From Candidatus Bathyarchaeota archaeon (GTDB taxonomy: Archaea; Thermoproteota; Bathyarchaeia; Bathyarchaeales; DTEX01): DNA of 64,000 bases. This document shows positions 49,324 through 62,472 of the stretch, piece after piece. The stretch spans positions 544,001 to 608,000 of the forward strand of contig CAVQNT010000002.1 of the NCBI GenBank assembly GCA_963714275.1, read 5' to 3'. Below the pieces are notes generated by a model. The model had not been told where the DNA came from. It did not search any database and worked only from the letters and a program-made list of their open reading frames with translations. Every line of letters begins with the position of its first letter. Positions within the stretch are counted from its first letter, which is position 1. Made by a program: the position numbers and the translations under genes.

Positions 49324-52300
49324 CTACGTGTATTCGATTCCTAAGGGTCTCTTCAGGAAGTCGAAGATTTCTTCCATTTCCTGAATCTTGTTTCTTAACT
49401 CCGCAAGTCTTGCCTGTAGGGGTCCGCATGTTTTCACGTATTCTTCTTCCGTGATTTCGCCTAGGTTGTATGAGGTCGTGATTCTTTCTACCTCAACTTC
49501 GATTTTTCCGATGTCGTCATGAATCAGTTTGTGATGAGGCTCTAGGTTAATGGTCATTGTTCTCAGATTCTTGGATTTTTCTTCAATTATGCTTATGTAT
49601 TTCTCTCGGAACTCGTTGTAGATTTCATCCGAAAGCTTACCTTTCTGTCCATCCAATATCCTGATTTTCTTGCTGCAGTCTTTGACTTGGTTCACGATTT
49701 CCTTGATTTCGGACATAATTTCCTCTATGGTCTTAACCTTCCGTGGGGCTTCTCTGATAATCGTCATCTTCAACTGCATTTCTTTCCAAGAAGAGAACCC
49801 GATCATGTACTGTTCTAAGTCTCGGGTTATCTGCCTGATCCTTTCGTAGTTGCGGTAACTTACTGGGAACTGAATGACGGGTATGAGGATGTCGCCTTCT
49901 CTCACGCCTTTTATTTCGCATGGCACAGTGACTCGAGCCATTTCGCCCATCGCGACGAAGGACACGACGAATGTTCCGTCCCTATATAGCTCTCCTTTGA
50001 CCGAGTGAGGGTCCACGAGCGACGTTTTGAATTTCCCGATGGTTTCTCTAATGTAAGAAAAGAGCATCTCTCCGTTCTGAACGCTTTCTCTGATTGGTAG
50101 TGTTAATGTTGTGATGCCACCGGAGGTTATTAGTTCCCCGACCATTTCCCGTTTTTGTTCCCTGCCCAAGAGGCTTATTCCGCGTGCCCTCGCGGCAGGT
50201 ATGTATCCTCCCAGAAACACCATAACCACGCCAGTCAAGAGTGCAACAAGTATTGAGGGCATTGACCAATGAGCAAGCGGAAGTGACAGTGTTTCTAGAC
50301 CCGACGTAGATATGAAGCTGGACATGAAAGATAGTCCAGCTCCCAAAATGTAGCTACCAAAGAAACCGATGAACGTGCCCATTAAACCGAGTAGAAGAGC
50401 TTCAACGAGGAAAACCTGAAATGCGTTCTTGGGATCAAGCCCAAGCGTGGCTAATGTAGAAAATTCTCTTCTTCTTTCCTCATATACTGACACCATTGTG
50501 GTGTACATCATCAATCCCGCAATTACGAGCGGTGGTATGTAAGGAATAAGCCCAGTAACCGAAAACTCCGTTGACCACACAATTTTTTGGGATATTCCGT
50601 CCTTGTTGGCTATAGTTGGAACCGCTAAAGTGTATGCGAGTTCTTTAGCGACATCAACCGGATTGACGCCTTGGTTTACGAGAATCGTAACTTCAGAAAT
50701 GACAATTGCTGGATCTCTTAAAGACTTTAATGGAATTAGAACAACCAAGGAAGCATCCTCAAACAAGGGAGTGTTATCTAACTTTATTAGATCGCTGAAG
50801 GCTGTCTGTGGGTCGAATACGCCTACTACACGAAACTCGCCCACTGTTCTAGTGATAGGGAACATAACTGTCTCTGTTATGGTTAAACCGACAGTCTTGG
50901 TTTACCATGAAACCAAAGTCAGATGGAACAATGATTACAGGTTCTCCTTCCACAAATTGGTTCCAGAGCCCCGTGACACGTCTAGATATGTTATAATATT
51001 TTTCCATGTAAGCGGGATCTATGCATACTACATTGATGTTTGTGTAGCTACTTCCACCAACAGAGATGGACACTCTACGAGCCAAGACGGATCCCGATGA
51101 CAATTCCTCTTGTGGCTGTATCGTTTCAATGTAAGATAGTTCCTTGCACCATTGCTGCAGACGAGTCCAGTTTACATCGTACTCAGTTATTGAGGCTACG
51201 GAAGTGTCTGGCACCACTAATACACCCGAAACGTTGGTGCCTATCCATTGCTCCTCAAATTTAGTTTCTCGGCTCATAGAAATATTTACGAAGACTATGG
51301 CTGAAGAAACAATAATTACGATTGTTATTAAGGTCAGCAAGGTTCGGGATTTTCTGCGTTTCAGACTTCTTACACCTAATTGTAGAGCGAGATCTGTCAT
51401 TGTCTTCTGGCGTACTGACAGCAACTGCATAGCGAAATAGGTTAAGCATCCTATCACGAAGCAACCTATCAGAGACAAGGGTAGGCTAACGCTTCTACTC
51501 CCAATTAACATAGCGAAGGTTATTTTCAGGGAAGGGTGAGAAAGAGAAAACATTAACATGACGAGAAAGAAAATTAGCACTTTAGTTATTAGCCGAATCT
51601 TGTTTTGGGATGGTTCATCAAAAACAAAGCTCGAAAGTAAAGACCCTAACCCGTACGCGAACAGGCTTATACCAATAGCTGTCAATACAGCTGTAACCTT
51701 ATTGTCAGAGAGCCATTTCATGAGATCGAGGAATTTGCTGGCTGAAGTCTTTGCACCACCAAAGGCCGATGTGTATTCGCCTGCTCTGTAAAGACCTAGA
51801 ACTCGATTCCAGAGGCTTTTGATTGCATTATATTCCTCTAGTTCTTTATCAAGTGGATATCCTGTGGAGTTGAAGAATTCAACTTCCTTATACATACTGT
51901 ACGTCGCACGTTCCACGTATTCAACGGCCGCATGGTACATCCAGTTGATTGAGGTCGTGTTTTCGTCTACTTTAACTATCAACGGCGAAATAGGATCCTG
52001 ACCATACCTTAACTTTTCAGTTTCAATGTTTGCCCACTCTGTGGTTCTATGGTAGATAACAATTTCATAATTAAGCGGGAAGAAATATAGCCGCTCAAAC
52101 GTGCTTCCATTACTAGGTATGTCTGTTTGGATTGCTGGTGTTAATATGAGATTCTGAGGTTCTCCAGTTATTGGGTCACAGTCAAGAACTCTAACAAGTT
52201 TTCCCTTAAGAACCCATATTGTACCCTCTATGTACTGCTTGTTAGTTAAAACCCTGTTCGATAAACCAATTCCCAGTCCAGAATGTATTGTGTGGTTCGC

Positions 52301-52693
52301 GCTATATTGTTCTTGATAACGGAATGTTTGAAGCTCTTCTATGAACGTGTTTTGTACTTTAATCAATGTATAATTGTCTGACAGATCAACATCCATGAGT
52401 ACCATGGTGTCAGGAACATAAGTTGTATTCACGTTTCCAAGGGATATTTGTACAACTCCAATCTCACTTGTGTGATTAGAGATTCTCCTGTAGCCCCAAT
52501 CCGTGTAAACATCAATTGTCACGGATAGGTTTGCAACAGCAATGCCTGTGTTATATTCTCTAACCTGTATAGACAAGTAAATAGGCACCGTCTCTACTTC
52601 CTGAAGAACATTAGCAGCTTGGGCTGGCATGGAAGTAAATGACGTGCAAAACGCAAGTAGAAGCATAAGAATAACTATTCGTGAGACCTTCAT
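49324..52693 (-). CDS. Large FtsX/MacB-type permease with N-terminal extracellular region and C-terminal coiled-coil tail (frameshift near 50898; about 1120 aa)
   Basis: Signal peptide; RSLKRRKSRTLLTLITI; SVYEERRREFSTLATLGL...FLVEALLLG; GYIPAARA. Confidence 0.82.
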
Positions 52694-54715
52694 CGCATCT
52701 CTCTGCCTCCCAGTTCCATTATTCTTGCTTCATACTCTTCTCTGAGTTTCCTGTAAATTTTATACTCAACTTGACCGTTCTTATATATCATTTCCAACTT
52801 TGACAGCATATTCTTATATCTTCTGATTTCCAGCGGTGTTCTTAACTTTCTTCTTTCTAGAATGACGGTGAACGATGCGAAGGGAAGAATGAGAAGCATA
52901 AGCGAAATCCAAATGATAGATTTGATGCTACAATTAATAGTATAATTTTGGTCGCTATTAAGGTTTACAGCTTGTGAACCTGAAAAGATTCCATGTTCTA
53001 TAGTTATTCCGTAGGAGCCCTGAGGAAGCAACAACGTGAGGTTACCTGTCTCATCTGTGTCAGTATCCGCTCTGATACGTTCGCTTGTTGCTACTAACAC
53101 GACATCAGCCTTCGATAAAGCGTTGCCAAACTGGTCTACGCAACGGAGCGTAAGACTGAAGACCCCACACATTATTATCCTGCCATAATCAGTTCGGATG
53201 TTCACTGTTTGAGACGCAACCTGTGTCCCCATCCATTCAACATTAACAGTATAGACTGCCTAAACGTAAACTCTGACGTAAGATGTGACCAAACGAGTCA
53301 GTGTGTTCCCAAAACACCAAGTTTTCTGAGTCATCGTAGACTCTGACGAGTGCTCCAGAAAGGGGCTGACCTGTCCTCGTGACGAAACTAAGTGACATAT
53401 AGGTTTTTTCACCAATAATAATAAACGATTCCATTTTTTGCAGGTTGATGATCATTTCCTTAACAATTTCGCCACTTGAAACTGTTATCCAGTAGGTTCC
53501 GTTCCAAAGATCACTGAACCTGACCACCCCGTTTTCATCAGTCTTTGTCCAGTTGATTAACTGCATAGTTTGATTCGTAACTACTGTTACATTAGTGGGA
53601 GAATAGAAGATGACTTGGTCATACAATAATATAACATATCCAACCAAAGGCTCTCCGTCTAGGTCAATGCATGTAACAGTCAGGTTGTTCATCCAACATT
53701 TTATCGTGAAAACCTTGGTTTCTGTAACTTCAATCTCCTTGTAACCTATGGTTCTGTTTCCGTACCGTGCTGTTACAGCGAACTCTCCGTTGATGATGTA
53801 GACATTTTTGTGTTCAACATAGCCTGTTTCATTCGAGTTGTCTTCAAAGAAAAGGTGGCCATTCATGTCACGGGTGAAAACTTGGGCGTTTGTTACATTA
53901 AAATCGGAAGCTGCCACCAAATGTAACTGAAAATCGACCCTGAGACATGGCAATGTGATGTTTGTTGGATTCTGGAAGACCATGATCCCTTCGCCAACAG
54001 CTGGAGGAATCTTGGTTATTACTAACTCCCCGAGAACATATTCCCTAATTTCCGTTTCGACACCAATTATTTTCATTCGGTAAGTTCCATTCCACACTGC
54101 AAGAAAACTTAAGGTTCCGTTATTATCAGTCTTTGCCTGTCTGACCAAACTTCCGAGTTCTTCAGTGACCAAAGTGACGTTCTGACGCCTTACAACTGCG
54201 CCTGATTCATAGGCAAACTTGGGCGCATCATATTCCAGCTGGTCATAAAGCATTACAGTGTGGTTCGCTAAGCGGCTCCCCTGTTTGTCAACAAGCGTCA
54301 TGTTGAAATCGTAAGACCAAGTTTTTATGAGATGAGTCGCGTTCTGGTTGATGTTGATTTCCTGGTATCCAATGGTTCGGTTTGCTTTCTGGACCGAAAT
54401 GACGTATGAACCTGCCTCGATGAACCTAAGATTGATGTATCCTGTCTGGTTGGAAAGGTAGCTTGTCGATCTTTGTCCTTGAGGATCAAGAATCGTAACA
54501 TTGACGTCACCGTAGCTGGTCTTGTTCGCCCAGTCCCTCACCCATAATGTCACGTTGTATCTAGCTGGAACATCATCACCGATTGGACTCCGTAAAGCTT
54601 GGACCCCAATAATTGTAGATCCGTTGTTAGAGTATGTTGAATCATATAATGCTTGAGACAGTAATACGATTAAGATGAAGAACGTGCTGAAGACGATTTT
54701 TCTGTGCGTTTTCAT
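52690..54715 (-). CDS. Surface protein with repeated carboxypeptidase-regulatory-like/Ig beta sandwiches, C-terminal TM helix and short helical tail (frameshift near 53255; about 670 aa)
   Basis: MKTHRKIVF signal peptide; repeats of D..G..L....V...T(D/N)..G.......G.Y; ATGA overlaps on both sides. Confidence 0.75.
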
Positions 54716-55723
54716 TGATTTTCCCTCGACACACTCTGAACACCTGAATATCTTCATATCCATGTCGTCCATAGATGAACGTGACTCAGTCACTTCGTAT
54801 TCAACTTTTTTCAGGTTCGTCTGCAATGAGCTTATTTTCACTTCGTACAACTGTTGAAAAATTTCACCGACTGAATATCTTACTTCAAGCTCCTTGATTT
54901 CATCCTTTACACGCGATGCTTCAAGCTCAAGATTCATGATTTTTTCAATTTTACTTCGCCTTAATGCAGCCCAACGATCCGAAATTGAACCCAGTCTTTG
55001 CCGGCAGAGCGAAAATGCTTTATCCATTTCTGCTGTTTTAGGTCCGATTGTTATTTTTTCTTTTATCATCGAAAGGTACTGTTCGATTATTCCAGTTTCG
55101 TCTTCAATCGGTAAAGTCGATAAAGTTGAATCAATCTTCGAAATTAGGTACTCCCATCTCTGAAATCCTGCGGAATACATCTTCACTCGGGAGGTTTCGT
55201 CAGCAAAAAAATCGCTTTGAAGGACGTCCGAATACGCCCGTACATATTGGAGGTTCACGTTTTTTGGTGTCCGTGTAGATTCAATGATGGGCATTGTGGG
55301 TGCAGGCGTGCTAACCTTCTCTTTTGCCCATTCCAACTTGGCTTTGGCTTTTGTAGCTCAAGAGATTCCCGCAGTCTGAAAATATCTTCAACAGACACGG
55401 ACAACTGGTTGCCCAGTTCATCCATGATGAGCCTGTATGCGTTTTCTGGAATCTCGCCTGTTTTAGACAGACTTAGCAAGCTCTTCTAAACTTAGGGATA
55501 TTTCCTTTACTCTCTTAACATATGACTGAAATTCTTTAAGGTATTCGTCAACTTCGTTATCTAGCTCTTTAATCGAAACCTCTGAAATGGGAATAAGCTT
55601 ATCCTTATCTTGAGGAATGGACTTCGCCTCATCCAAACGTCTCTGAACAGGCGTAGGAATTCTTTGTTTTTTGGCTGACCCAGCCGACGATTTCCTTCCT
55701 ACTCGTTCAAAGAAGCTTGCCAA
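54712..55723 (-). CDS. Soluble coiled-coil protein with CdvA-like/SHOCT-like segments (three probable sequencing indels; about 335 aa)
   Basis: Joined from ORFs 55463-55723, 55255-55479 and the first 207 codons of 53243-55336; IKELEVRYSVGEI motif. Confidence 0.68.
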
Positions 55724-55861
55724 ATTTTTTGCCCTACTTGCATGCTTTATGATAGTGTACTTCCTAACGCGAAGTGTAATTTATTTCAAGTATTCTTGGA
55801 TATATATTCCTTTTTATAAAAAGGGAAACTTTCAATAGGTCGTCGGTTTTCTGTGAGGTTA

Positions 55862-55950
55862 TCTGGTCTGATTTGTGTAACAAGTGAGCTTTTGTTTTGT
55901 GCAACAATACTGGAGCTTATGAAAATTGAACCATTTCAAAGAACGTTTGT
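55862..55950 (+). repeat. Dispersed intergenic repeat, locus E
   Basis: Near-identical to 9367-9455; begins TCTGGTCTGATTTGTGTAACA. Confidence 0.85.
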
Positions 55951-56018
55951 TAAGTTGTTTCGGAATAATTTGACCTAATTTGTTATTGGTCTTTTGATCT
56001 CTGGATTACACAGAATCT

Positions 56019-56297
56019 TTGTTGAGTGATTTTTCAGAAGTTGACAATGGAATCTACGTTAGCAGGTTCAGCGGAAACGTAAATCCACAAAGCGGGGACT
56101 TTTCGGGACTCGTAAAGCAGGCAAGCTACGTCGAAAAAGGAGAAATCAAGTTTCCCTTAAAAGAGACCATTATTTCTGGTAACACTTTTGAGGCTTTACG
56201 GAACATTGTTCGGATTGGAAGCGAAACTAGACCAACCTTAATGGACGTCTATACTCCGCCCTTGTTTTTGAAGAATCTTAAAATTGTTTCAAAATAG
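56019..56297 (+). pseudogene. C-terminal fragment of a TldD/PmbA family protein
   Basis: GIYV.RFSG.VNP.SGDFS...VEKGEI..P.....ISGN; the N-terminal several hundred residues are absent. Confidence 0.8.
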
Positions 56298-56366: not shown

Positions 56367-57913
56367 ATGGAACTAAAAGCCAAGATACTGGGTTTAGAAG
56401 CTGGCGGAAAATTTATTGTTGTCCTTAATCGTGAAGATGCTGAGGACCTGAGCGTTTCAAGCTTAGACAGGGTTAGGATCAAAGGTCGCAGCAACGAAGT
56501 CATCGCGATTGTGAACATCACGACCAAGCTTATCGAAGAAGGAACAGTCGGAATCTACGAGGAAGTCAAAAACAGCTTAGACCTGAAAGAAGGCGCTATA
56601 GTTGATGTCGAGATTGCTCCCTTGCCTACATCGGTCTATTTCATCCGAAACAAGCTGAACAGAAGAAAACTCACATACGAAGAAATCCATGAGGTAATCC
56701 AAGATGTTGTGAAGGGCAAGCTAAGCGAAATTGAGATCGCGTCCTTTGTCACGGCCCTTCATATTTTCGGACTTGATTTGGACGAGGCAACAAGTCTTTC
56801 AACAGCAATGGTCGAGACTGGTAACGTTCTGAAAATCAACAAGCCAGTGATTGTTGATAAACATTCAATCGGCGGAGTCCCTGGAGACAAAACAACATTA
56901 CTCGTTGTGCCAATAGTCGCTGCAGCTGGCTTAACCATACCTAAGTCTTCGTCCAGAGCCATAACCTCAGCTGCAGGTTCAGCGGACAGAATCGAAGTTC
57001 TCATGCCCGTGAACCTTGGGCTGGAAGAAATGCAGAAAGTGGTCGAAAAGACCAACGGTTGCATGGTTTGGGGAGGAAACTTAAACCTTGCGCCTGCGGA
57101 TGACATTTTCATTAGGGTTGAGCATCCGCTTTCGATTGACCCGCTTCTTTTGCCTTCGATAATGAGTAAGAAGAAGGCTGTTGGAGCAAATCTCATGGTT
57201 CTAGACATCCCCACGGGCAGAGGCACAAAAGTTAAAACCATAGGCGACGCTGACCTTTTGGCGAAGGATTTCATGGAAGCTAGGCCGACCGGCTAAACAT
57301 TAAGGTTCAATGCGCAGTGACCTATGGCGAACAGCCAGTTGGACACACGATCGGACCTGCATTGGAAGCCAGAGAAGCTTTAGGCGTCTTAATGGGAGAG
57401 GTGGAAGTGCCGGACCTTGTTGACAAAGCCACGAACATAGCAGGCATATTACTGGAAATGAGCGGAAAAAGCAACGGGAAAGAAACTGCCCTAGAAATCT
57501 TAAGGTCAGGCAAGGCAGAAAAGAATCTGCGTGAAATTATCGAAGCCCAAGGCGGAAACCCAGACGTTAAAATTGAGGATATATCTGTAGGCGAAAAGAC
57601 ATGCACAATGTGTTCAAGAAAAGAGGGCTATCTGCTCTGGATCAACAATGCGCCGCTTGCTGAGGTTGCTAGGCTTGCGGGAGCACCAAAGGACAAGGGA
57701 GCAGGCGTCTACCTCTACAAAAAAATTGGGGACAGAGTGAAAACGAACGAGCCACTGTTGGCAATCCATGCCGAAAGGAACCTTAAGCTGCAGAGGGCTC
57801 TGGATGAGCTTGAAAGGTCTGATGTTCTCGGCATAGGTGAACGGATGGACATGCTTATCCACGAAGTCAGGGAACTACCTGTGGCAAAGTCAACATTCAC
57901 GATTGAACGTTAA
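56367..57913 (+). CDS. AMP phosphorylase (frameshift near 57283)
   Basis: DKHSIGGVPG.K, PKSSSRAITS.AG.AD, SIMSKK, IGPALEA, GAPKDKGAG. Confidence 0.93.
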
Positions 57914-60992: not shown

Positions 60993-62472
60993 TTGAGGAG
61001 AAATTTTGTGCCTAAACCTTACGAACTGACCGCAACAGAAGCTGCGAGAAAAATTAAAAGTCAAGAATTAACGTCTGAGGAGTACCTGCTTTCAATATTT
61101 GACAGAATAAAAGAAACCGAAGGTAAGGTTCACGCCTTCATCACCATCACTAAAGATAAGGCGATAGAAAAAGCCAAGGAAACTGACAGACATATTCGTA
61201 AGCGAGGAAAGATCGGTGTTCTCGCAGGTGTTCCAATAGTCGTTAAAGACAACATCTGCACGCGCGGAGTGCGGACAACGTGTTCATCTCGCATGCTTAA
61301 GGATTATGTGCCCCCTTACGATGCGACGGTCATAGAAAAACTCAACAACGAAGGCGCAATCGTCTTTGGCAAAACGAACATGGATGAGTACGCAATGGGA
61401 ACAACCACTGAAACAAGCTTCTATGGCACAACGCTAAACCCATGGAACCCCAAAAAAGTGCCAGGCGGATCTTCAGGCGGAAGCGCAGCTGCAGTAACAG
61501 CGGAAGAAGCACCCTTAGCCTTGGGTTCAGACACTGGAGGCTCGATAAGGTGCCCCGCCAGCTACTGTTCAGTTGCGGGGCTGAAGCCTACTTATGGTCT
61601 TGTCAGTCGCTATGGGCTCATTTCGTATGCTAATAGCCTTGAACAGATCGGTCCTTTAGCTAGAAACGTTCGAGATTGCGCCCTTTTTCTTTCTATTATC
61701 AGTGGACATGACAGTAAGGATAGCACCTCCGTTGATTTACCTTCCAAAGACTATACAACTTTTCTTAAAGAAGATGTTAAAGGTCTAAGAATTGGCGTGC
61801 CACAGGAATTTTTTAGCGAAGGAGTCGAAGATGGCGTCAAAGAATCCGTCTGGGAAGCCATTGGCAAGCTTGAGAACCTCGACTGCACGTATGATGAAAT
61901 CTCTCTTCCAAGCATGAGTTATGCGTTGGCTGCATACTATATTGTGGCAATGTCAGAAGCCAGTTCAAACCTTGCACGTTACGATGGGTTACGTTACGGT
62001 TTCCGCGAGGAACGGGATGAAGGAGATTGGGCAACTGTCTACGCGATGGACCGGAAGGAAGGATTCGGGACCGAGGTGAGAAGGCGAATAATCCTCGGCA
62101 CCTACGCCTTGTCAGACTGGTTACTATGATCAATATTACCTCAAAGCATTGAGGGTTCGAACAATTTTACGCAGAGACTTCGAAAAAGCCTTCAGAAGTT
62201 TCGACGTTCTCGTTGGTCCAACGATGCCACTTTTGCCTTTCAACATCGGCGAGAAGATAGATGATCCATTAACTCTTTACATGTGCGACATTTTGACTGT
62301 GCCAGCAAATCTAACAGGCTACCCAGCTATTTCTGTTCCTTGCGGTTTCCAAAATGGTCTGCCGATTGGGCTGCAGATAATAGGGAAACCTTTTGATGAA
62401 GAAACCGTCCTTCGAGTAGCACATGCATATGAACAGAACACTGAACACCACCTTCACAAACCGAACCTTTAA
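60993..62472 (+). CDS. gatA: Asp/Glu-tRNA amidotransferase subunit A (frameshift near 62115)
   Basis: [45 protein letters not shown]. Confidence 0.96.

Follow-up and report, generated by a model that had tools for sequence, protein, structure and literature searches.

Bacterial FtsEX, MacAB-TolC and LolCDE are type VII ATP-binding cassette (ABC) systems, and FtsX and MacB belong to a family of mechanotransmission proteins. CdvA consists of a PRC domain together with a coiled coil of three helices (PMC12818579). The CdvA coiled coils contact one another head to tail through A90, L94, I100, I149, M153 and I156, and mutation abolishes the filaments (PMC12818579, section 5). These filaments show no membrane-binding surface, and unidentified tethering partners have been postulated for them (PMC12818579). 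Additional CdvA-like proteins of Bathyarchaeia are encoded outside the cdv locus (Makarova et al. 2024, PMC11188069), and for SHOCT-like units a role in anchoring or assembling complexes beneath the membrane has been predicted (Ravi et al. 2024, PMC11237479). Here we describe a three-gene operon, A-B-C, in a 64,000-nucleotide (nt) stretch of a Candidatus Bathyarchaeota archaeon genome (assembly GCA_963714275.1, contig CAVQNT010000002.1, positions 544,001 to 608,000; hereafter the window). New in this operon is an FtsX-type protein without a linked ATPase joined to CdvA-type coils. The assembly comprises 10 contigs (2.64 Mb), which are labelled C2 to C7 and so on below.

The three genes are co-directional, and in the window they are disrupted by five single-base indels, which are considered further below. 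Their features, in window coordinates, are as follows (TM, transmembrane; aa, amino acids).

54712-55723, minus strand: gene A, a soluble coiled-coil protein of about 336 aa, with indels near 55471, 55354 and 54733.
55435-55458, minus strand: first motif of A, GEIPENAY, located where hairpin 1 turns (residues 88-92), with G89, E90, I91 and Y96 conserved.
54761-54985, minus strand: second hairpin of A, which forms the latter half of a CdvA-type coiled-coil domain (hhalign, hidden Markov model (HMM) census, PF18822).
54845-54868, minus strand: motif 2 of A, GEIFQQLY, within hairpin 2.
52690-54715, minus strand: gene B, with a signal peptide, CarboxypepD_reg repeats, sequons, one TM helix and a 55-aa tail; indel near 53255.
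52693-52857, minus strand: cytoplasmic tail of B, its best-conserved part, with motif 3, GQVEYKIY, at 52753-52776.
49324-52693, minus strand: gene C, an FtsX/MacB-type protein of about 1,121 aa, with an indel near 50895; its order is signal or anchor segment, 300-aa outer domain, three extra TM helices, MacB TM1, periplasmic core, FtsX TM2-4 and 290-aa tail.
From about 51343 downward, minus strand: periplasmic core of C (Pfam and topology prediction).
50173-50529, minus strand: FtsX TM2-4 of C (Pfam and topology prediction).
49738-50181, minus strand: small alpha/beta domain (beta-alpha-beta4-alpha) at the start of the C tail (AlphaFold2 (AF2) model).
49366-49671, minus strand: C-terminal part of C, a full three-helix coiled-coil domain of the CdvA type (hhalign, HMM census, structure alignment, PF18822).
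49618-49641 and 49438-49461, minus strand: motifs 4, GKLSDEIY, and 5, GEITEEEY, of C, at two turns of the CdvA-type domain.

C is a membrane protein of the MacB/FtsX type that ends in a complete cytoplasmic three-helix coiled coil of the CdvA type. The FtsX family (PF02687) scored 54.3 bits (E 1.8e-14) in the window piece and 48.7 bits (9.2e-13) in the intact C of the closest relative, G004, in both cases above the cut-off of 25.5 bits. MacB_PCD passed marginally in the G004 protein (27.2 bits at a cut-off of 27, covering profile positions 1-204 of 207) and reached 18.1 bits in the broken window piece. Topology prediction found eight hydrophobic segments in C, which places the 290-aa tail inside the cell. 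Databases label C as "FtsX-like permease" or "lipoprotein release permease", and PF18822 was among the precomputed matches in one of 36 clusters.

The tail of C was compared by hhalign with a target of 28 Bathyarchaeia PF18822 domains, against which it scored 94% (E 1.4e-7, 106 columns). PF18822 itself matched 10 of the 14 C tails, with a best value of 1.7e-4, under the 30-bit cut-off. The AF2 model of the tail (predicted local distance difference test, pLDDT, 78) has the beta-alpha-beta4-alpha domain followed by three long helices. When this model was aligned by VIA-align with 48,161 PDB representatives, the best match was 9s9g_A, the S. islandicus CdvA filament (Z 13.8, root-mean-square deviation (rmsd) 2.9 A, 128 residues), pairing model residues 153-280 with residues 68-197 of the chain; the next entry had Z 9.7, and ESCRT-I core hairpins about 9.2. 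Foldseek returned nothing for the model at E≤0.001; the CdvA mutant 9s9i_B came 46th, aligned over 222 columns with E 0.059, prob 0.99 and rmsd 13.9. This superposition is too loose to identify the beta domain of the tail with a PRC barrel. A profile search of the tail against PDB sequences did not find CdvA, giving only Rad50 coiled coils at E≥0.15. The alpha/beta domain weakly matches the KA1 domain 5wi2_B (Z 8.6, rmsd 2.8, 92 aligned); Foldseek gave nothing for this domain at E≤0.001, and the ESM Atlas gave no usable match.

The sequence and the model of A indicate a soluble protein of two long hairpins, of which one matches the first half of the CdvA coiled-coil domain and the other the second. 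Topology prediction found no hydrophobic segment in A. In the AF2 model (pLDDT 76), A is all helical, with long hairpins at residues 51-87/93-138 and 231-284/290-332 and both motifs at hairpin turns; the insert that splits the CdvA-type domain, about 90 residues long, is disordered and partly helical. In hhalign, hairpin 1 scored 82.8% (E 9.4e-6) and hairpin 2 scored 95.3% (E 2e-8, 61 columns) against the CdvA-like domain, and hairpin 2 scored 79.9% (E 1.4e-5) against the C tail. Pfam gave only matches of the coiled-coil type on A, including PF18822 ("CdvA-like coiled-coil") at 0.018 in the first pieces, and PF18822 matched 10 of 11 A orthologs, the best at 8.9e-6 and every one under the 30-bit cut-off. 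When the A model was searched against the PDB with Foldseek, no match reached E≤0.001, and what came up consisted of designed helical repeats and 14-3-3 proteins.

The original prediction had traced a motif, G-[EQK]-[ILV]-x4-Y, through the three proteins, and all five of its instances are present: two in A (55435-55458 and 54845-54868), one in the B tail (52753-52776) and two in the C tail (49618-49641 and 49438-49461). About 0.23 would be expected in the roughly 2,140 aa of A, B and C together, the rate in the genome's six-frame open reading frames (ORFs) of at least 150 aa being 0.107 per 1000 aa. The strict pattern fails in many orthologs (B often has G-L-V), and the core that orthologs share is G-x-[IV]-x4-Y; at the fourth instance the G is variable and K-L-[ST]-x-E-[IV]-Y is conserved. 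The same core occurs twice in the genome's own PF18822 proteins, which are canonical CdvA and small CdvA-like proteins with glutamate-rich tails.

An HMM census of the CdvA-like domain over all 29,573 ORFs of the genome gave E-values of 4e-4 for the C tail (profile positions 4-107), 3.2e-4 for the C paralog, 4e-3 for A and 1.1e-4 for the A paralog. These entries rank directly behind the known CdvA-like proteins, and the next unrelated ORF follows at 0.19. The coiled-coil hairpin of SerRS, used as a negative control, reached at most 0.6% in all seven hhalign comparisons. The sub-threshold PF18822 scores of A and the C tail are to be expected, because the canonical CdvA of this genome, at 24.6 bits, is itself under the 30-bit cut-off. 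Homology of A and C to the CdvA domain is thus well supported. The census also brought up a 310-aa ORF at C2:217527-218456 with several CdvA-like hairpin repeats (E 1.7e-6); this ORF ends at a weak SHOCT match (C2:218431-218508, E 0.0025) and weakly matches the A and B-tail profiles.

The motif had also been likened to SHOCT (PF09851), and membership of that family was not borne out: none of 14 B tails matched at E≤10, and the scan of the genome itself gave only E 0.95 over eight positions, in the C tail. Among the matches listed, SHOCT was also not one of the 25 families matched by most members for A or for the C tails. A distant relative of A (P0071) has one hairpin that scores on SHOCT (27.6 bits), CdvA (26.4) and GvpG (37.1), and the earlier double CdvA/SHOCT label therefore reflects a real overlap of profiles at the motif.

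B is predicted to be a glycosylated beta-sandwich surface protein with one TM anchor and a 55-residue cytoplasmic helical hairpin at its end. It has CarboxypepD_reg (transthyretin-like) beta-sandwich repeats (1.5e-19 in Pfam), a signal-like segment and, by topology prediction, a single C-terminal TM helix at 52858-52917. B has 20 N-x-S/T sequons, the two outer parts predicted for C have 7 and 3, and the C tail has none, a distribution that agrees with the predicted topology. The B tail, with a mean column identity of 79% across 14 orthologs, scored 11.6% (E 0.0026) in hhalign against the CdvA-like domain in the expected register, at the first motif, and by eye its hairpin aligns without gaps to the first tip of CdvA. 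Pfam gave no match to SHOCT or CdvA in any of the 14 B tails, and the genome-wide CdvA census missed the B tail as well. The CdvA-like label that had been given to all three proteins thus holds for A and C, by hhalign with its control, the census and the structural match of the C tail, and is at most suggestive for B.

The A-B-C operon is conserved within, and restricted to, a single group of Bathyarchaeia. Two sets of loci were compared, 14 around C orthologs from 41 related genomes and 29 from a one-genome-per-species scan with the A alignment; at least nine contigs are common to both. Synteny in relatives, on which the original prediction had staked its reading, was found: 13 of the 14 C loci have A, B and C in this order, and the exception (G012) has B-C without A and carries an A-like domain elsewhere, fused onto a longer protein. 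B and C overlap by 4 nt in 13 of these loci; in the 14 loci A has 296-341 aa, B 460-742 aa and C 1113-1173 aa; the search of the 41 genomes, made with the C-terminal half of C, gave intact C frames of 1124-1177 aa. The 29 A loci, all from metagenome-assembled genomes of Bathyarchaeia, comprise 22 with A-B-C, three solitary A paralogs, two irregular loci (L037 and L039) and two at a contig edge. Flanking genes vary by lineage and include SerRS, PfkB, PFK, tryptophan synthase, MoeA and AglB. A sample of 301 genomes from the class turned up A in 14, with 12 of 16 positive in the window's family, 1 of 1 in a second and no hit in the other families searched within that sample; with C as query, there were strong matches in a third family too. 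At E≤0.001 the A profile matched 56 representative clusters among 1.84 billion representative proteins. The module is therefore rare, which limits its general reach.

We give about an even chance to the reading that A-B-C encodes parts of one envelope-spanning assembly. An alignment of the genome's CdvA with 9s9g identifies I100 as the Ile of the first E-I-P-x3-Y motif and places the second contact patch immediately before the second motif, so that the motif-bearing tips are the contact sites in the only family member with a solved structure. In S. islandicus CdvA the second motif, E-I-P-E-N-A-Y, has seven residues identical to motif 1 of the window's A. Because CdvA coiled coils join head to tail through such tips, the tips of A and of the C tail, perhaps together with the single hairpin of B, may by analogy dock on each other under the membrane. 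The docked parts would form a scaffold connecting cytoplasm, membrane and cell surface, in which C would act as a mechanical or structural link without solute export. C would then resemble bacterial FtsX, which couples a cytoplasmic machine to events outside, with the coiled-coil scaffold replacing or supplementing the ATPase. Candidate processes could be envelope or S-layer assembly, division and vesicle budding.

Several observations weigh against an assembly of this kind. The link of the B tail to the CdvA domain is suggestive and does not reach significance. In a gapless mapping by eye, patch 2 of CdvA (I149, M153, I156) corresponds to E, T and N in the C tail and to K, V and S in A, and A and C are also without the PRC domain, which mediates lateral contacts in CdvA filaments. 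Because neither A nor C preserves this hydrophobic patch, CdvA-style homopolymers are not implied. The Z of 13.8 for the C tail lies just above about 13, and lower values for helical bundles may reflect a common arrangement only. A three-chain prediction that combined residues 150-285 of the C tail with the B tail and residues 48-336 of A, A being the partner, scored 0.40, 0.41 and 0.40, and a control in which chain 1 was replaced scored higher, 0.62; it speaks neither for nor against a complex. C orthologs also retain, around TM2-TM3 and after TM4, the sequence features usual for FtsX. C may therefore have an unlinked ATPase partner, and the missing ATPase linkage may be usual in this genome.

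C could thus be the permease of an ordinary MacB-type (type VII) ABC machine with its ATPase encoded elsewhere, in which case the coiled-coil tail would dimerise or regulate, A would be a regulator or adaptor, and B an outer accessory protein or substrate. We regard this as unlikely, though it has to be taken seriously. FtsX and MacB_PCD occur in C in the expected order and topology, with the FtsX sequence around TM2-TM3 and after TM4 kept; the genome has 62 ABC_tran matches; and five other FtsX genes (six with C), including the C paralog, are likewise without a neighbouring ATPase. Against it, no ABC ATPase adjoins the cluster in the window, as had been noted before, and an ABC-ATPase HMM that finds 61 ORFs in the window genome as a positive control, when run on 43 loci (498 kb), had no hit in those with A-B-C. 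It hit twice, each time about 7 kb from a solitary A paralog. Each of the six ATPases in this genome's MacB-type cluster is within 3.1 kb of another FtsX gene, and a search for an orphan MacB-type ATPase by similarity and distance, which did not include a phyletic-profile search for a co-occurring ATPase, therefore gave no clear candidate. The retention of a tight three-gene operon without an ATPase across families indicates a self-contained unit.

An envelope-spanning assembly could also belong to the Cdv/ESCRT apparatus of division or budding. The C tail and A would then tether CdvA filaments to the membrane and B would link the ring to the surface layer, in parallel to the linking of divisome and wall by FtsEX. 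The CdvA-type domain in C and A speaks for this, as does the postulated need of CdvA filaments, themselves without membrane binding, for tethering partners (PMC12818579). The cdv genes that the original prediction had suggested looking for are present as a canonical locus at about 132.4-135.9 kb of contig C6 (L059), which encodes Vps4/CdvC (MIT, AAA and Vps4_C domains), a Snf7-like protein and the CdvA of 24.6 bits mentioned above. This locus also holds a 214-aa gene, possibly ESCRT-III-like, without a Pfam match. However, A-B-C never adjoins cdv genes in the loci examined, and A and C have no recognisable E3B peptide and no PRC domain, nor is contact patch 2 of CdvA conserved in them. PF18822 proteins occur in 26 of 26 relatives, whereas 14 genomes of the 301 from the class have A, 12 of them among the 16 of its own family, and most Cdv-bearing Bathyarchaeia therefore manage without the module. 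We consider a role in the Cdv apparatus improbable. The same low standing applies to a bolder form of it, in which C would be a built-in membrane anchor for CdvA-type polymers and A-B-C would couple a Cdv/ESCRT-type scaffold to remodelling of a glycoprotein surface layer, as an archaeal counterpart of FtsEX with a scaffold in place of ATPase input.

It is very improbable that the motif is a generic coiled-coil feature or due to chance and that the genes are linked by adjacency only. The PF18822 matches are all below the gathering score, many unrelated coiled-coil families match at weak E-values and the B tail is without a significant match; on the other side stand the excess of motifs over expectation, the conserved motif positions in orthologs and the retention of the operon with its 4-nt overlaps. 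That the motif might be common to coiled coils, an outcome foreseen in the original prediction, is largely refuted by the hhalign control with the SerRS hairpin, the census that divides A and C from noise, and the C-tail match to CdvA, which exceeds other helical matches.

The frame breaks in the window are assembly errors or strain differences and not gene decay. The minus-strand ORFs (translation table 11) lie head to tail at 55463-55723, 53243-55336, 52690-53232, 50849-52693 and 49324-50865. Gene A passes through three frames, the region of about 55200-55500 being translated in all three, and its final piece is joined in frame to B; the three window pieces of A are 69, 62 and 85% identical to the intact A of G004. 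Public Logan contigs from four runs in three studies, 95-99% identical to the window, differ from it by one base fewer at 50895, 53255, 54733 and 55471 and one base more at 55354. These are the exact sites of the frame breaks, and each difference is present in two or three of the four runs. Run X2 has none of the five and has other indels at 49989, 51191, 51784/51787 and 52970, with a 2-base one at 50895. Removal of the five indels in silico gave stop-to-stop frames of 355 (A), 697 (B) and 1134 (C) aa, which align end to end with the intact proteins of G004 (336, 681 and 1121 aa) with 273/336 (81%), 521/681 (77%) and 923/1121 (82%) identical residues. The single-base repairs proposed earlier were therefore right. 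Of the two ATGA overlaps, that of B and C (52690-52693) can be read directly and that of A and B (54712-54715) after removal of the indel at 54733. The gene types also agree with those first assigned, namely a soluble coiled coil, surface repeats with one C-terminal TM helix, and an FtsX/MacB-type protein of about 1,120 aa. None of the 20 public runs listed for the locus is an RNA run.

That A, B and C are decaying pseudogenes in this genome is scarcely credible: there are five frame breaks inside 6.4 kb and broken second copies of C on contig C4 and of A on C7, but all five indels are absent from public contigs, full-length frames return once they are removed, the adjoining housekeeping genes for AMP phosphorylase, amidase, SerRS and PfkB are broken in the same way, which indicates assembly error, and three of the five sites become AGCT once the extra base is taken out, while a fourth adjoins AGCT. 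Basecalling errors made systematically where an AGCT motif is methylated may account for such sites. The density of AGCT is 4.44/kb in the window genome and 4.84/kb in the relatives' loci, and AGACT and AGTCT are not enriched. Other features near the operon are the following; the truncated neighbours fit an error-rich assembly.

55848-55995, no strand assigned: dispersed repeat of about 130 nt, directly upstream of A and outside the module (blastn).
56019-56297: C-terminal fragment of a TldD/PmbA gene.
56367-57913: AMP phosphorylase gene in two ORFs.
60993-62129: amidase gene.

The repeat has 19 further copies on contigs C2, C3, C4 and C6 (71-88% identity by blastn), one of them at C6:159856-159984, immediately after PfkB, and it has no match in Rfam. 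Near relatives have SerRS-PfkB directly upstream of A, from which it follows that an ancestral SerRS-PfkB-A-B-C arrangement was broken or misassembled at the repeat. An earlier scenario, in which an ATPase gene was split off at about 55862, is thereby excluded, as SerRS-PfkB was what the repeat separated.

The second copies in the genome are unlinked and frame-broken, C at C4:107327-110712 (L013; 72-85% identity) and A at C7:162821-164265 (L014; 37-51%). The A copy on C7 continues a DUF362 gene, and the protein library holds DUF362-A fusions of 531 and 784 aa (P0047 and P0051). At L050:6552-8909 and in P0055, an A-like domain forms the C-terminus of a polytopic membrane protein of the GT-C type (PMT_2/PIG-U-like, 757-786 aa), a second architecture that places the module on a protein of the envelope-glycosylation type. 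These fusions agree with a docking-module role.

The operon bears on the contact between CdvA-type scaffolds and the membrane. Here the CdvA coiled coil is covalently joined to a polytopic protein of the FtsX/MacB family, and the operon combines it with a soluble protein of the same domain and a predicted surface glycoprotein. If the parts bind each other, the operon would offer a testable CdvA-type module as a sub-membrane connector and also an example of an FtsX-type protein working without a linked ATPase.

Compared with the type VII permeases FtsX, MacB and LolCE (PF02687, PF12704), C shares the FtsX domain and a MacB-like core between TM1 and TM2, with both ends inside the cell. In those systems the ATPase is fused or adjacent, whereas C has neither in any A-B-C locus examined. 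C adds an N-terminal outer domain with three TM helices, and a 290-residue cytoplasmic tail consisting of the alpha/beta domain and the CdvA-type coiled coil. Its coiled-coil partner A is predicted to be cytoplasmic, unlike EnvC and PcsB, the coiled-coil partners of FtsEX, which lie outside the membrane. Like the hairpins of the operon, SHOCT (PF09851) is a short helix-turn-helix unit that has a turn resembling G-x-I-[ST]-x2-E-Y and lies on the cytoplasmic face of membrane proteins; its unit has 28 residues, whereas the helices of A, B and C are far longer and without a PF09851 match.

The CdvA-like proteins of Makarova et al. (PMC11188069) have the same domain and come from the same class as A and C, but are small and soluble. 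The available text of that paper makes no mention of a fusion to FtsX-type proteins or of the A-B-C operon, and neither the operon nor a fusion of FtsX with CdvA was found described in a literature search whose scope stopped short of the tables supplementing PMC11188069 and PMC11237479. The window genome has such small CdvA-like proteins with a glutamate-rich tail at C5:26156-26701 and C2:913001-913395. The gene at C5:26156-26701 (L058:8189-8704) is divergent from a PadR regulator and adjoins an ABC/FtsX transporter pair, a neighbourhood reminiscent of the PadR-linked systems of helical signalling proteins that Ravi et al. (2024, PMC11237479) described.

With CdvA itself (PF18822; S. islandicus 9s9g and 9s9i), C shares the whole three-helix domain in its tail and A the two halves of it, and both have the E-I-P-x3-Y or G-x-I-x4-Y motifs at helix turns. 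CdvA has a PRC barrel, whereas the A model is all helical and the domain before the coiled coil of C is beta-alpha-beta4-alpha without a PRC match. The C-terminal E3B peptide, by which CdvA binds the CdvB winged helix, is not recognisable in A or C, and the second hydrophobic polymerisation patch is not preserved in them. CdvA is encoded in the cdv locus, on contig C6 in this genome, whereas the neighbours of A-B-C are housekeeping genes. This genome has a separate canonical CdvA, and in the module the domain is attached to a membrane protein in C or split by the insert of about 90 residues in A.

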